Source: a virus. Taken from it: a stretch of DNA of 31,192 bases. Below are positions 7,086 through 15,639 of the stretch, piece by piece. Location: the UHGV virus genome UHGV-0019120; one strand, written 5' to 3'. Below the pieces are notes generated by a model. It did no database searches and was not told the DNA's origin. It saw nothing but the letters and a program-made list of their open reading frames with translations. Position 1 is the first letter of the stretch. Every line of letters starts with the position of its first letter. Made by a program: the position numbers and the translations under genes.

Positions 7086-7739
7086 ATGACTATCTCTGTA
7101 GGTATTTTCAACGGAAAAGGCGGCGTAACCAAATCAACAATTGCCCGTGCTTTAGCAGTTGCTTATGCAAAGGCTGGCTGGAATGTATGCCTGATCGATA
7201 TGGATGTGCTTAACGGAACGGTAACGCGTTGGGTACAACGCAGAATGGCCAACAATATCGAACCAGCAATCGCGGCGCAGCCGTGCGGCACACCATCACA
7301 AGTCCAGAAAATCATCGAATCAGAAGTATACGACCTGGTTATCGTCGATGGCGGTGCCTACGCATCTGAATCAGTACCGAAGCTATCTGAATTTCTGGAT
7401 ATGGTTATTTTGCCAACCCGATTCTCTACCGATGACCTGGAAACCACCGTTAACACTGCTCACGGCATCGTTAAAAAGGGTGTACCAATCAAGAAAATTT
7501 GCATGGTGTTTTCCGGCGCGGCTGAAAACGAAGCTGACTATATTGAAGCCCAAGAGTACCTGGCTAATACGCCATACTTTGTTGTCGATAAGTACATTCC
7601 CCACAAGCCAGCTCTGAGCAAAGCTCAGGATAAGGGCTTAAGCCTCATTGAGTGCTCATACGTTGCGCCACGCAAAAAGGCAGACGACGTTATTCAGGGG
7701 ATTATCAACCAGCTTGAGGCTCTGACTACTGCCGCATAA
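7086..7739 (+). CDS. parA: ParA/ParF-type partition ATPase
   Basis: Deviant Walker A FNGKGGVTKST, A-prime motif VCLIDMD, B-like DLVIVDGGA; start placed at ATG 7086 (GGAG RBS) rather than track start 7071. Confidence 0.8.
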   Translation: MTISVGIFNGKGGVTKSTIARALAVAYAKAGWNVCLIDMDVLNGTVTRWVQRRMANNIEPAIAAQPCGTPSQVQKIIESEVYDLVIVDGGAYASESVPKLSEFLDMVILPTRFSTDDLETTVNTAHGIVKKGVPIKKICMVFSGAAENEADYIEAQEYLANTPYFVVDKYIPHKPALSKAQDKGLSLIECSYVAPRKKADDVIQGIINQLEALTTAA

Positions 7740-8252: not shown

Positions 8253-8276
8253 TAAAAAAGGCCCCCGAAGGGGCCT
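8253..8276 (-). terminator. intrinsic terminator for the minus-strand small gene
   Basis: GGCCCC-CGAA-GGGGCC hairpin; A6 on the plus strand gives a U-run on the minus strand. Confidence 0.55.
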
Positions 8277-8281
8277 AATCG

Positions 8282-8404
8282 CTACTTGCTGCTAATGTTT
8301 ATCGTCACATTCAGAGCGTTATCAGTAATCTTCCAACCCTCCCCATGTGGCGTAAACAAAGCCCCAGTAACAACGATAAAAATACACATACAGTATTTTT
8401 TCAT
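8282..8404 (-). CDS. small hydrophobic peptide (about 40 aa)
   Basis: MKKYCMCIFIVVTGALF... with AAGGG RBS and own terminator; track ORF 8282..8464 is longer. Confidence 0.3.
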   Translation of the reverse strand: MKKYCMCIFIVVTGALFTPHGEGWKITDNALNVTINISSK

Positions 8405-8802
8405 TGTATGGCCCTTACAGGCCGTTTCACGGCATCCCCACCGACGAAAACAACGCGAGAGCAAGCACGGCTGCTTGTGCTTGCATGTACGGCAACGGAG
8501 AATCCTCCCCTAAAGTCGGTGCCCGGGTGCGAATCGGCGGGAAGGTCCACAGGTATTTTACGATTATTTTAAGATTAGTAATAGGAAAGAAATTAAACGA
8601 AAAAACTCGTTTATTTTCACAAAATCAGTAACCTACCCACAATCTGTGAGTTTGCAGGCACAACAAGAACCACAATTTTTTGAAGCATAATAGTGGACTA
8701 TTATTACCTTTTGGGTAAAATTAACTTGCTGCTTGTGCTTGCGTGGTTGTTTATACAACGACGTTATGCTGAAAGGACCGCGAATCCGATCAGCACGAAA
8801 GA

Positions 8803-8828
8803 ACCGTCCTCAATAGGGCGGTTTTTTT
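8803..8828 (+). terminator. intrinsic terminator within the non-coding region
   Basis: ACCGTCCT-CAAT-AGGGCGGT stem (one G-U wobble) followed by T7. Confidence 0.5.
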
Positions 8829-8883
8829 GTTTCTGCCTACCAATAAACCCACGCTATGTGGTTGTCTCTGTTAAAATCCCGCC

Positions 8884-8994
8884 GTATTGACATGAATGCG
8901 CCATTGGTGGACACTTTCCGAGCCGTAGCAAAATCTACGGTCGGGATTGGAACCCCGTAGACACAATGGCGCATACCGCGTTAGCGGTTTTTTT
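8884..8994 (+). ncRNA. candidate structured small RNA (c4-like antisense regulator)
   Basis: Extended -10 TGtTAAAAT near 8866-8874; 9-bp outer stem 8898-8906/8964-8972 enclosing two hairpins, one with loop ATTGGAAC; ends at short hairpin plus T7 (8975-8994). No ORF. Confidence 0.35.
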
Positions 8995-9160
8995 ATGCGT
9001 AAAGCACTGCTACACCCAAATTATGGTGGGGCGTGCGGGGGAGTCGTAAGACTCGCCGGTTCGTCATTGTGTCCGGTAGTTCCAACCCTGCACGTCTCAC
9101 CACCCAATGATTGGAACCTGACGGTGGTGAGTATCCTTAACCTTTAAGGGAATCATCACA

Positions 9161-12073: not shown

Positions 12074-12231
12074 AATAATAGTGACTGGTGCTTTTTTAGG
12101 CTTCACATTAAACATTTTTGTTTAGCTTATTGGCAAGGTCTTGAAAAAGACATTTCAGCAATGGTATACCATTGAACATGGTATCGGCTGAATTTTACAA
12201 TTAACACATTTTAAACAATTGGAGGTGCAAA

Positions 12232-12516
12232 ATGGCTAAACCAAAATCTGAAATTGATGCTATTCGAGCATTAACAGAAGTAACAATTAAAGGTTTTGAG
12301 CAGGTTGCTCAGGCATTAGTTGATATGAGAGAAGCTCAGGGAAAAGTCGCACGAGCAACATATAATGGATTAACCTCCTCAGGAAAATCTCGCTATGTTG
12401 CATCGCTAGTAGAGGAAGTAGGATCACAAGCTGAAGTAAGCCGCATGTTAAATATCACACCTGGGCGCGTTAGCCAGCTTATGAAGTCCGAAAAAAACCG
12501 CAAAAATGGTAAGTAA
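12232..12516 (+). CDS. putative HTH DNA-binding protein
   Basis: 94 aa; C-terminal GSQAEVSRMLNITPGRVSQLMK is HTH-like; GGAGGTG RBS; 16-bp perfect palindrome CAATGGTATACCATTG (12159-12174) in its upstream region. Confidence 0.45.
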   Translation: MAKPKSEIDAIRALTEVTIKGFEQVAQALVDMREAQGKVARATYNGLTSSGKSRYVASLVEEVGSQAEVSRMLNITPGRVSQLMKSEKNRKNGK

Positions 12517-12520
12517 ATAA

Positions 12521-12543
12521 GTAAGGCCCCAATGGGGCCTTAC
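12521..12543. terminator. hairpin between convergent genes
   Basis: GTAAGGCCCC-AAT-GGGGCCTTAC 10-bp stem; flanks only weakly U-rich. Confidence 0.45.
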
Positions 12544-12549
12544 ATTATG

Positions 12550-12849
12550 TTAGACATGGAACGCTACTCGCTTTCCTGTAGGAAGCTCAACATCCAGGCT
12601 TAATTTGCCTCCCATAGCTTCAACGTAACGCTTTAATGTCGCCAGCTTTAAATCATTTCCGCGCTGCTCCAGCTTTGTTACTGCTGGCTGGCTTATACCC
12701 ATCGCCTCAGCAACCTGTTTTTGTGATAACTGGAGTTCTTCACGCATCATCTGCAAGCCGACCTCAAGAATCATCTCATCTGCCATTTCTTTAATTCGCG
12801 CCTGGCTTTCAGGTGAACGGCAGGCAATCACCTCATCTAATGTTCTCAT
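12550..12849 (-). CDS. HigA-like XRE-family antitoxin
   Basis: 99 aa; HTH LSQKQVAEAMGISQPAVTKLE; start overlaps toxin stop (ATGA at 12846-12849), downstream of the toxin as in HigBA-type modules. Confidence 0.7.
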   Translation of the reverse strand: MRTLDEVIACRSPESQARIKEMADEMILEVGLQMMREELQLSQKQVAEAMGISQPAVTKLEQRGNDLKLATLKRYVEAMGGKLSLDVELPTGKRVAFHV

Positions 12850-13196
12850 TACTTGCTCTCCAGTGTGTTCAGATGTGCTGCAAACTCATCCTCAGCTATA
12901 CGCACCAGTTTTTTATAAAACCGCTTATCGTTACTTTTGTCTCCTGCACAAAGAACGATGGCCCGACGAATCGGATCGAACGCATAAAAGGCTCTTATCG
13001 GACGGCCAGAAAACTGAACGCGAAGCTCTTTCATATTTTTGTACCGAGAACCTTTTACGGTATCGGCATATGGCCTGGGTAACTCAGGTCCGTAAACCTG
13101 TAGATTTTTCAAATCAGCCAAAACCTTTTCCTGAAGAGCCTCTTCTTGCTCATTTAGCCAGTCGTCAAATCGCTGGCTAAAAAGTACCGTCCACAT
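12849..13196 (-). CDS. HigB/RelE-superfamily toxin (Gp49-like)
   Basis: About 116 aa from ATG 13196 (AGGA RBS); the ...YAFDPIRRAIVLCAGDKSNDKRF... C-terminus resembles phage Gp49/HigB-type toxins; track ORF 12849..13316 is longer. Confidence 0.6.
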   Translation of the reverse strand: MWTVLFSQRFDDWLNEQEEALQEKVLADLKNLQVYGPELPRPYADTVKGSRYKNMKELRVQFSGRPIRAFYAFDPIRRAIVLCAGDKSNDKRFYKKLVRIAEDEFAAHLNTLESK

Positions 13197-13440
13197 GCTC
13201 AATCCTATAACCTGTAGTTTATACCACTGACTATATAACCCGTAGGTTATAATTTCAAGAAAAACGGGGCTATTTAACATAATGGACGTTATCGGCACCA
13301 CCGGATCACCGTTCATTGTCGGATCTAAAAAATCCGCTCAAAAGATCATGTTTTCCTGGGCGTTTTCCACCGTTTTTTATGTTGCTTATTTGTTAATGAA
13401 ATCTCGTTTTCAGTTTCGCCTCATTTTCGACGCGAAAGCC

Positions 13441-13731
13441 CTATTTTTGTGACTTTACTCCTGGCATATGGACTTCCCAGCGACGAATCCCCATAGCTGC
13501 GCAAAAATCAGCCACATAATTCAATCCCGCCCATTCGCGGATACCACCACGGGCTTTTTCAATGAAAACGGCAATCCCTTTTTTATTGAGAGCAAAAAGC
13601 CGCCAGCTTTTTGTCACTTCGTCCTGGGTAGCCACAACACAAGTGAAAGCTCCCATGCGATACAGGTCCAAGAACTCTTTGCGTGTTTTGCGTACAAGTT
13701 CCATAACAAACCTCATATTTGCATGTTTCAA
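13441..13731 (-). CDS. hypothetical protein
   Basis: 96 aa; 4-bp overlap with the upstream HTH gene. Confidence 0.4.
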   Translation of the reverse strand: MKHANMRFVMELVRKTRKEFLDLYRMGAFTCVVATQDEVTKSWRLFALNKKGIAVFIEKARGGIREWAGLNYVADFCAAMGIRRWEVHMPGVKSQK

Positions 13732-14027
13732 ACATCTGTTTTGTTATCAATGAAGATTAACCCTAACCCAGCGAAGTAACACAGCAGCGCCCAGGCTGCA
13801 TACGGAATGCTGGATCTGGATGTGGACTCCTTTAACATCTGCCAGTTGCGAACATTGCGACTATCTTTTAAGCCTAGTTTTTTGGCTAACTGCGAGCCGC
13901 TCATTCCGGTCAGGCCAATGACTGCCCGAACTTCTCCACATGTAGGAGATTCCCATTCATCCGCTTTTTTTAAACAAGCCGGATTCAACATTTTTAAAAC
14001 AGTATCTTTATCCATAACCATCTCCAT
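13728..14027 (-). CDS. XRE-type HTH protein with C-terminal hydrophobic segment
   Basis: 99 aa; HTH LTGMSGSQLAKKLGLKDSRNVRNW then a roughly 20-residue hydrophobic stretch IPYAAWALLCYFAGLGLIFI. Confidence 0.45.
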   Translation of the reverse strand: MEMVMDKDTVLKMLNPACLKKADEWESPTCGEVRAVIGLTGMSGSQLAKKLGLKDSRNVRNWQMLKESTSRSSIPYAAWALLCYFAGLGLIFIDNKTDV

Positions 14028-14658: not shown

Positions 14659-15639
14659 TTAATGTTGGAGTGATTTCCAGGTCTTTCTTAACCTGTTATA
14701 ACGCTGCTCAACGAGGGATCGTAAATATGCAAGGTCAGCTCCAGGATACATGCCATCAGCAAATTCCTGGCTAACCTCTCTAGTGATTTGATGACGAAGT
14801 TCGGCCTCTCCCTTTTCCCGAACAAGACGCGCAGCTCTCTCCGCTGCTTTCTGTTTTGCCTTTATCTCTCTGGCCGTCTTCCTCTGACGCCATACATTCT
14901 CCATCTGCTCCTGAATAACAATACGCTTATAATCAGCCTCCGTTATCGCTTTTTTAAGCCGTTCGCTATTCCTCGCATTGAAGTAATTAAGTTTCTGGCT
15001 AACCGCACGTCTCCATGCTTGTTCAGTAATACCAACGGTTTCCAGCAGTTGATCACGAATCTCTATTTTCGCAGGCCAATACTGTTTATTCACCCGATCC
15101 CAGCGACGTTCATAATCAATAAAACCTAACGCTTTCAGTTGCGACAACGCCCTTGTACAGCGCGTTATAGACTTGTTCCCAGCTTCGGATACGGTAGACA
15201 GGCCGCAAAAATCAGACAACGCCTCAGCACTGGCCAGAACCCGCTTAGAAATGATGTTTACATGGTACAACATCGCAGCAATCAGAGCATTAAACGCCCG
15301 ACGACGATGTTCGTTTATCCGGCGTTTCCGCTCTGACGGTTGATTAACGTAGAACGCAACCTCACACGTAAGATCACGACCATTAATGCGCTGTAAAGCA
15401 TCAGATAACACCAGCGGCAGCTTGTGCGTATGGCGCTTTGGAGGCTGGAACTCCGGCGACAAATTACAAACGTAAGCTGAACGTAGAGACGGCATTGGTC
15501 TATCCATATGTTCGCTCTTGCGTCCACGGAAAACCAACGTATAATGGGAGTTGTCGAGGCGCCCATGGATTGTTGTTGTTGGTTTTCCGTGGATGTCGCA
15601 AGAAGCCCGCAGATTTATCTGCGGGCTTTTTGTTTCCAT
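14659..15639 (-). CDS. repA: IncFII-type plasmid replication initiator RepA
   Basis: Central LSTVSEAGNKSITRCTRALSQLKALGFIDY closely parallels R100/R1 RepA1 as I recall it; Arg/Lys-rich coiled C-terminus also similar. Start uncertain: ATG 15639 or internal ATG 15507. Confidence 0.75.
   Translation of the reverse strand: METKSPQINLRASCDIHGKPTTTIHGRLDNSHYTLVFRGRKSEHMDRPMPSLRSAYVCNLSPEFQPPKRHTHKLPLVLSDALQRINGRDLTCEVAFYVNQPSERKRRINEHRRRAFNALIAAMLYHVNIISKRVLASAEALSDFCGLSTVSEAGNKSITRCTRALSQLKALGFIDYERRWDRVNKQYWPAKIEIRDQLLETVGITEQAWRRAVSQKLNYFNARNSERLKKAITEADYKRIVIQEQMENVWRQRKTAREIKAKQKAAERAARLVREKGEAELRHQITREVSQEFADGMYPGADLAYLRSLVEQRYNRLRKTWKSLQH
15520..15635 (+). ncRNA. candidate antisense copy-control RNA (CopA-like) opposite the repA 5' region
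   Basis: 15-17-bp perfect inverted repeat (15524-15538 / 15578-15592) then a strong plus-strand intrinsic terminator (15603-15632); no plus-strand coding potential. Promoter not identified. Confidence 0.35.

Follow-up and report, generated by a model that had tools for sequence, protein, structure and literature searches.

A HigBA-type toxin-antitoxin cassette with paired putative operators in a phage-plasmid genome

The virus genome UHGV-0019120, a stretch of 31,192 nucleotides (nt) analyzed here as a whole and referred to as the window, contains a two-gene cassette that is very probably a functional and autoregulated type II toxin-antitoxin (TA) pair of the reverse HigBA type, Gp49 branch, judged from its sequence. 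A HigBA-type pair with autoregulatory palindromes had been proposed in the first-pass annotation, and this is the best-supported reading: the first gene encodes a Gp49 toxin with a RelE/HigB2-like predicted fold, the second encodes a HigA-related antitoxin, and palindromes of the form seen on its promoter occur upstream of the toxin gene in 79 of the 81 loci compared (the window included). The two co-oriented open reading frames (ORFs), toxin first, were recovered on the minus strand at exactly the coordinates originally given for them.

12849..13196, minus strand: toxin gene, HigB-like, Gp49 family; 115 amino acids.
12550..12849, minus strand: antitoxin gene, HigA-like; 99 amino acids, with an HTH_3 domain at residues 32 to 83 and a recognition helix at about S53 to Q62 (SQPAVTKLEQ).
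12856..12861, minus strand: antitoxin ribosome-binding site GGAGAG, read from the sequence; within the 3' end of the toxin gene.

The layout is that of the reverse "hig" modules, with small, abutting toxin and antitoxin genes in this order, one upstream promoter, and a downstream terminator. In RefSeq, the products are labeled "type II toxin-antitoxin system RelE/ParE family toxin" and "helix-turn-helix domain-containing protein." The ATGA overlap initially described for the two genes was not confirmed. The toxin frame ends in AAG TAA (12851-12849) and the antitoxin ATG occupies positions 12849-12847, giving an overlap of 1 nt (TAATG) in which the antitoxin start codon uses the last A of the toxin TAA; the string ATGA is visible at the junction because a second in-frame stop codon, TGA, directly follows TAA. 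Among the 81 loci (the window and 80 relatives from different species), the junction is most often a true ATGA overlap (24 loci), and TAATG is found in six, including the window. The GGAGAG site is located 8 nt before the antitoxin ATG and, together with the 1-nt overlap, suggests that translation of the antitoxin may be coupled to that of the toxin. A longer ORF of 155 amino acids starting at position 13316 was rejected as the toxin gene because all homologues start at MW and because the promoter and operators are located inside the extension.

The toxin matched the Pfam family Gp49 (PF05973) with a score of 80.7 bits (cutoff, 23.9; E = 8.6e-23) over model positions 1 to 89 of 90, and this match places it in the Gp49 branch of the RelE/ParE superfamily. 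No family besides Gp49 was found for the toxin in Pfam-A (hmmscan, E ≤ 0.01), and PF05015, which contains the HigB proteins of Rts1 and Escherichia coli K-12, was not matched. The pair is HigBA by its organization and by the naming of its relatives, and by profile comparison it falls outside the sequence family of Rts1 HigB (PF05015). The score against the NCBIfam model TIGR02683 (upstrm_HI1419, a RelE/ParE subfamily) was 18.2 bits, below the cutoff of 62.85, and the toxin also matched PHROG 3445, annotated "toxin." Its subfamily is large, comprising 3,289 cluster representatives at 50% identity (E ≤ 1e-3).

The AlphaFold2 model of the toxin, with a predicted local distance difference test score (pLDDT) of 90.3, has secondary structure elements in the order E-H-H-E-E-E-H, a RelE-type topology that fits the RelE/ParE fold, in which a helical hairpin at the N terminus packs on an antiparallel sheet of three or four strands. 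The top Foldseek matches of this model in the PDB were Vibrio cholerae HigB2 (VcHigB2; 5JAA_D, E = 5.8e-5), the RelE proteins of Thermus thermophilus and E. coli (2KHE and 4FXE_E), and Streptococcus pneumoniae HigB (SpHigB; 6AF4; query-based template modeling score [TMq], 0.67), followed by ParE2 and YoeB. When the toxin sequence was compared with all PDB chains, as a single sequence or as a profile of 26 sequences or of 73 diverse sequences, no real match was obtained; PDK1 and alpha-galactosidase appeared at chance level and were rejected as relatives. As no solved structure can be reached by sequence, even with the 73-sequence profile, the subfamily is without an experimental structure. Y94 is found in all of the 73 diverse relatives, and E57, L58, R59, R68, F73, R77, and K87 are found in nearly all of them. 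R59, R68, K87, and Y94 are candidate catalytic residues resembling a RelE-type active site, and the toxin is, by analogy with its relatives, probably an RNase. The antitoxin matched the Pfam family HTH_3 (E = 4e-10), a helix-turn-helix (HTH) domain of the XRE/Cro-C1 type, and its best relatives of solved structure were HigA3 (MtHigA3; 6LTY, E = 5.2e-5) and HigA2 (7EWC) of Mycobacterium tuberculosis and HigA of S. pneumoniae (SpHigA; 6AF3).

The elements that are predicted to control the cassette are the following.

13253..13258, minus strand: -35 hexamer TTGAAA of the predicted higBA promoter; sigma-70-like site from a promoter search.
13230..13235, minus strand: -10 hexamer TATAGT of the same predicted promoter, from the same search.
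13234..13251, both strands: putative operator O1, TATAACCCGTAGGTTATA; perfect 18-bp palindrome, TATAACC-N4-GGTTATA (7-N4-7).
13206..13223, both strands: putative operator O2, TATAACCTGTAGTTTATA; 18-bp palindrome with one mismatch, reading TATAAAC-TACA-GGTTATA on the minus strand.
13203..13206, minus strand: toxin Shine-Dalgarno sequence AGGA, 6 nt before the ATG; read from the sequence.
12521..12543, both strands: strong bidirectional intrinsic terminator with a 10-bp stem (7 G-C pairs), common to higA and the convergent gene 12232-12516(+).

The promoter, TTGAAA-17-TATAGT (13258-13230, minus strand), is the sole sigma-70-like promoter in the region from 12200 to 13800 and has 10 of 12 consensus matches. 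The existence of an internal antitoxin promoter, an idea once raised and then disproved for Acinetobacter baumannii, was also considered, and none was predicted in this region. Both palindromes agree in position and sequence with those first reported, the one at 13234-13251 being perfect and the one at 13206-13223 having a single mismatch. O1 occupies 16 of the 17 bases of the spacer between the -35 and -10 hexamers and reaches 2 nt into the -10 hexamer. O2 starts about 7 nt past the -10 hexamer and covers the 5' untranslated region and the transcription start site, as deduced from the position of the -10 hexamer; its last base doubles as the first A of the toxin AGGA. A protein bound to these palindromes would thus stand in the way of RNA polymerase, at the spacer and -10 hexamer (O1) and at the start site (O2). 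With up to two mismatches allowed, TATAACC-N4-GGTTATA occurs only at O1 and O2 in the window, whereas 0.06 matches were expected from dinucleotide-preserving shuffles and none of 100 shuffles reached two. The terminator begins 7 nt past the end of higA. No RNA element was found within the cassette in an Rfam scan.

The palindromes recur across the subfamily. When 110 nt upstream of the toxin gene were examined in the 81 loci, at least one TATA-ended 7-N4-7 palindrome was found in all but two, and at least two were found in 56; the background rate of such palindromes elsewhere in the same loci was 0.054 per 110 nt. They cluster at -55/-60 (distal, the position of O1) and -30/-35 (proximal, the position of O2) relative to the toxin start codon. 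In 48 of the 68 loci that have a distal palindrome, TTGNNN is found no more than 9 nt upstream of it. The half-sites differ by lineage, TATAAGC being the commonest, TATAACC being that of the window, and TATAAAC, TATAGAT, and TATAGCC occurring elsewhere. In the variants, both arms are altered together, usually in both operators. The E. coli phage-plasmid copies of O1 that were aligned, that of strain Seattle 1946 included (TATAACT-CACA-GGTTATA), each have one mismatch, whereas O1 is perfect in the window and also in Yersinia phage vB_YpM_41 (TATAACC-CACA-GGTTATA).

The identity of half-site base 6 follows that of antitoxin residue 59, located in the recognition helix: lysine is paired with C in 8 of 9 cases, glutamine with G in 41 of 53, and alanine with A in 10 of 12. 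The clearest example is provided by the 24-kb E. coli plasmid NZ_CP070117.1 (cassette at 591-1371), the antitoxin of which has the same HTH domain as that of the window except for E48D and K59Q. In this plasmid, both operators have changed from C6 to G6, giving TATAAG(T/C)...(G/A)CTTATA, and the promoter region is otherwise similar. The cassette and the similar upstream flank are 75.8% identical to those of the window, and divergence is greater between the toxins than between the antitoxins. The two cassettes would be a natural specificity-swap pair, as predicted from these differences. We propose, tentatively and at somewhat less than even confidence, that residue 59 of the recognition helix alone may set base pair 6, with lysine specifying C, glutamine G, and alanine A.

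An independent counterpart to O1 is found in M. tuberculosis. The promoter of higBA3 (Rv3182/Rv3183) contains the palindrome TATAACC-TAGA-GGTTATA around its -10 box (PMC7340258), with half-sites and spacing identical to those of O1. MtHigA3 (6LTY/6LTZ) has a lysine at the position aligned to K59, in the sequence SQARVSKLE, compared with SQPAVTKLE in the window, and its N-terminal ~34 residues are disordered and dispensable for DNA binding (PMC7340258). The M. tuberculosis system differs in being chromosomal and actinobacterial and in having an antitoxin with a longer N terminus; only one such palindrome has been reported for it.

V. cholerae HigBA2 (5JAA and 8A0X), whose toxin ranked first among the fold matches of the toxin model, shares the toxin-first gene order. 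Its HigA2 binds the toxin through an N-terminal region and forms an HTH dimer through its C-terminal part (PMC5416850, PMC11006873), as the antitoxin described here probably would. Its operator is a 7-bp inverted repeat that extends from just past the -35 hexamer across the -10 hexamer. However, the identity between VcHigB2 and the window toxin is only ~17% in the structural alignment, and the V. cholerae system, which is located in a superintegron and not on a plasmid, has only one operator, of unrelated sequence and with a spacer of 5 bp (TGTACGC-N5-GCGTACA). The HigBA pair of Proteus vulgaris plasmid Rts1, the founder of the "hig" name, is plasmid borne and toxin first, like the window pair. 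In an arrangement resembling that of the window, two operators, O1 and O2, overlap elements of its promoter, and HigA or the HigB2-HigA2 complex binds them independently and noncooperatively (PMC12266136). In Rts1, however, the operators lie over the -35 and -10 hexamers, whereas those of the window lie over the spacer and the start site, and the toxin belongs to another Pfam family and HigA has another architecture and toxin-binding mode.

The closest system with experimental data is HigBA2 of A. baumannii (Armalyte et al., 2018). The copy used for comparison was that of plasmid p3ABAYE (NC_010404), listed as carrying higBA2 (PMC5906591), because the Acinetobacter homologue could not be tied to pAB120: the published higA2 cloning primer (pAB120) had no match with up to three mismatches in the Acinetobacter locus of our set (L083) and no exact match in the fetched loci. 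The window toxin and antitoxin are 57% and 60% identical, respectively, to those of p3ABAYE, a pair that is likewise plasmid borne and has the gene for a Gp49-domain toxin ahead of that for an XRE-HTH antitoxin. For pAB120 HigBA2, it has been shown that the toxin arrests growth and the antitoxin rescues it, that RNA is degraded in vitro, that the pair stabilizes an unstable plasmid, and that the promoter is repressed by HigA and more strongly by HigBA, with no active internal higA promoter; killing and rescue as well as complex formation were reported for A. baumannii HigBA variants, and HigB2 and HigB3 of M. tuberculosis were placed in the same Gp49 cluster as A. baumannii HigB (PMC5906591). 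The operator of A. baumannii HigBA2 was left undefined in that study (PMC5906591). The Acinetobacter loci examined contain one clear palindrome, of the type TATAGAC-N4-ATCTATA, over the -10 hexamer, compared with two in the window, and both the half-site and the recognition helix differ (KQPSLSAIEN in Acinetobacter and SQPAVTKLEQ in the window). In p3ABAYE, the antitoxin gene that follows a second higB2 copy (42200-42505, minus strand) is unannotated and appears to be frameshifted at a run of G residues (gggggggaaa); this second copy, which would lack an intact cognate antitoxin, is presumably covered by the other one.

The name Gp49 itself comes from gp49 of N15, a linear phage-plasmid. Dziewit et al. 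(2007) reportedly described both tad-ata of Paracoccus plasmid pAMI2 and gp49/gp48 of N15 as toxin-first stabilizing modules. The link between the window toxin and the distantly related N15 gp49 is based on Pfam family membership only, because N15 was not reached when the toxin was compared with 50,697 phage records by tblastn (E ≤ 1e-3).

Several points weigh against the interpretation of the cassette as an autoregulated HigBA-type pair. In the electrophoretic mobility shift assay of MtHigA3, the protein shifted a 20-mer containing the left half of the palindrome and not a 24-mer containing the full palindrome (PMC7340258), which does not sit easily with simple binding of a dimer to a palindrome. 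The fold assignment of the toxin rests on a predicted model, as there is no sequence-level match to solved structures, and for the antitoxin, whose alignment was shallow (87 to 100% identity), the AlphaFold2 model is of low confidence (pLDDT, 70.8; predicted template modeling score, 0.32) and was left out of the fold search. The spacing between O1 and O2 is variable across the loci, mostly 25 to 29 bp, and therefore phased cooperative binding is not implied. Finally, phylogeny is a confounding factor in the match between residue 59 and base 6. As a separate observation, the conserved element in the loci compared here is the full palindrome, which is at odds with the M. tuberculosis binding data (oligonucleotides DNA-2 and DNA-4).

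The 1.2-kb region from 12300 to 13500 of the window is 100% identical to E. coli plasmid pPRO_A-1505-6W-A_3 (47.9 kb), which also matches most of the rest of the window, with a few divergent stretches before position ~10,100. This plasmid is a phage-plasmid, as it has P2-like tail and baseplate genes, a holin gene, repA, and parA. Near-identical genomes have been deposited as Yersinia phages vB_YpM_39, vB_YpM_41, and vB_YpM_44, where the toxin is labeled higB2. In the window, the cassette is located in the plasmid-maintenance region, between parA (~7086-7739) and repA (~14659-15639). Of 5,426 complete E. coli genomes, 77 contain 80% or more of the cassette, and in these the pair is 97 to 100% conserved; 102 of the 103 places matched are on plasmids, mostly of 47 to 50 kb. 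One of the carriers of the phage-plasmid family and the cassette is the reference strain E. coli Seattle 1946, in plasmid pEcFELIX377.1 (NZ_CP101926.1; 48,488 bp).

A closely related copy is found in Yersinia pestis, where positions 1675-2409 of plasmid pPCP (NZ_CP045153.1) are 95% identical to positions 12550-13285 of the window. One end of the shared segment is the antitoxin stop codon (12550), and the other (13285) lies ~27 nt upstream of the -35 hexamer; the segment holds the promoter, the operators, and both genes, and therefore the cassette moves as one unit. On the plague plasmid pPCP1, the cassette is located directly downstream of the virulence gene pla, encoding the plasminogen activator, and its O2 has a degenerate left arm (GGTAAGC). 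In at least one paper, the two genes are named only as a "putative transcriptional regulator" and a "hypothetical protein"; the block of pla plus the two genes is also present on a Citrobacter koseri plasmid (PMC4793686). A 9,631-bp record assigned to Amphibacillus jilinensis Y1 (Scaffold15, NZ_JH976447.1) is 100% identical to Y. pestis pPCP over the 4,821 nt compared and is almost certainly pPCP1 contamination of a Firmicute assembly, as judged from this identity. A 94%-identical antitoxin attributed to Enterococcus durans may be a similar contamination.

Based on the conservation of the palindromes, the tracking of half-sites by residue 59, the operator of MtHigA3, and the joint mobility of genes and operators, it is very likely that HigA binds O1 and O2. 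From its context and by analogy with the relatives described above, we infer that the cassette acts in "addiction," that is, in postsegregational killing, and plasmid addiction is the main role that we favor, with some reserve. Type II TA systems can also serve as defense systems, and the main alternative, compatible with addiction, is that the same parts serve in conflict between elements (abortive infection, anti-phage defense, or exclusion of plasmids and phages) rather than in stabilization. The cassette is carried by a temperate phage-plasmid that forms virions, as indicated by the near-identical Yersinia phage genomes, and the toxin weakly matches the PADLOC component NsnC (E = 2.8e-7). 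That match is partial, however, covering the C-terminal 100 residues of a 294-residue model, and the cassette is located between parA and repA, with no recognizable defense island; the same cassette is present on the small nonphage plasmid pPCP1, and the 57%-identical pair of A. baumannii stabilized an unstable plasmid (PMC5906591). We therefore consider a primary role in defense or competition unlikely.

With respect to the activity of the toxin, Gp49 is part of a joint RelE/ParE superfamily and ParE2 (5CW7) is among the fold matches (E, ~1e-2; TMq, 0.46), which would be compatible with a ParE-like gyrase poison instead of an mRNA endoribonuclease. This is very improbable, since the RelE and HigB RNases match the fold better, the 57%-identical HigB2 of A. 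baumannii degrades RNA in vitro (PMC5906591), and the near-invariant R59, R68, K87, and Y94 resemble a RelE-type active site. It is equally improbable that the pair is a decayed or domesticated module in which the toxin is inactive and HigA is merely a transcription factor. Some pPCP1-type variants do have a local double frameshift in the toxin gene, but in the window both ORFs are intact, all toxin residues near-invariant in the family are present, and the pair is highly conserved in the 77 E. coli genomes. Both genes are under purifying selection, which is as strong on the toxin as on the antitoxin (nonsynonymous polymorphism [pN], 0.07 to 0.14; synonymous polymorphism [pS], 0.73 to 0.90, with synonymous sites saturated). 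That the palindromes serve another regulator (a phage-plasmid repressor or a RepA/Par factor, two HTH proteins being encoded nearby at 13728-14027 and 12232-12516) or stop transcription from an upstream operon is hardly credible, as they accompany both genes into unrelated contexts (chromosomes, pPCP1, and plasmids both small and large), variation in their half-sites goes along with variation in the recognition helix of HigA, and neither palindrome is followed by a T-run or called as a terminator.

For an autoregulated HigBA pair, we suggest the following mechanism. The single promoter would drive expression of higB and then higA, and the terminator would close transcription after higA. HigA dimers would bind O1 and O2 via their HTH recognition helices and switch transcription off, with K59 reading base pair 6 in each half-site, and HigB-HigA complexes may repress more strongly than HigA alone, HigB acting as a corepressor. 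The N-terminal ~30 residues of HigA would wrap around HigB and neutralize it. HigB is predicted to be a RelE-fold mRNA endoribonuclease with R59, R68, K87, and Y94 in its candidate active site. Upon loss of the plasmid or degradation of HigA, free HigB would arrest growth, and the phage-plasmid would be kept in the population.

Other small genes and RNA elements were detected around the cassette. The 94-amino-acid protein encoded at 12232-12516 on the plus strand, convergent with higA, gave weak HTH/YdaS-like matches (21 bits, compared with the Pfam cutoff of 30) and matches phrog_15590, of which the function is not known. Between the cassette and repA, there is a second small gene pair (13441-14027, minus strand). 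The HTH protein encoded at 13728-14027 weakly matches "mobile mystery protein A" and belongs to phrog_8351, and its gene overlaps by 4 nt with 13441-13731, which encodes a 96-amino-acid protein of phrog_4595, also with no known function. The two genes may have a regulatory role or may form a further TA-like module. In addition, an unannotated 1.1-kb gap of the phage-plasmid contains three Rfam matches above the gathering score (8254-9107).

8254-8550, minus strand: ryfA RNA; Rfam, 141.8 bits.
8922-8994, plus strand: isrK; Rfam, above the gathering score.
9019-9107, plus strand: C4 antisense RNA; Rfam, above the gathering score.

The isrK and C4 antisense RNA elements are located just upstream of ORF6N/Rha-type genes, and the region looks like the immI-type antisense control of an antirepressor in P1 and P7. 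We take ryfA to be a possible second toxin locus, of a type I-like kind.

The higBA pair of the window is a correctly recognized, already annotated, and ordinary member of a known family, and the general understanding of TA systems is unchanged by these results. What is added beyond the annotation is the anatomy of the promoter and operators, its conservation across the subfamily with two-sided changes of the half-sites, a candidate rule by which one residue governs recognition, and the finding that the cassette is nearly identical to the one next to pla on pPCP1. The operators of this subfamily had been only partly defined experimentally before, and the operator obtained by comparison (7-N4-7, TATA ended, in two copies) is well defined. 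If the rule for residue 59 is true, near-identical antitoxins on coresident plasmids would repress only their own promoters, and the rule would also account for the operator of M. tuberculosis HigA3. For its carriers, a widespread family of ~47- to 50-kb E. coli phage-plasmids, the cassette plausibly acts as a determinant of stability.

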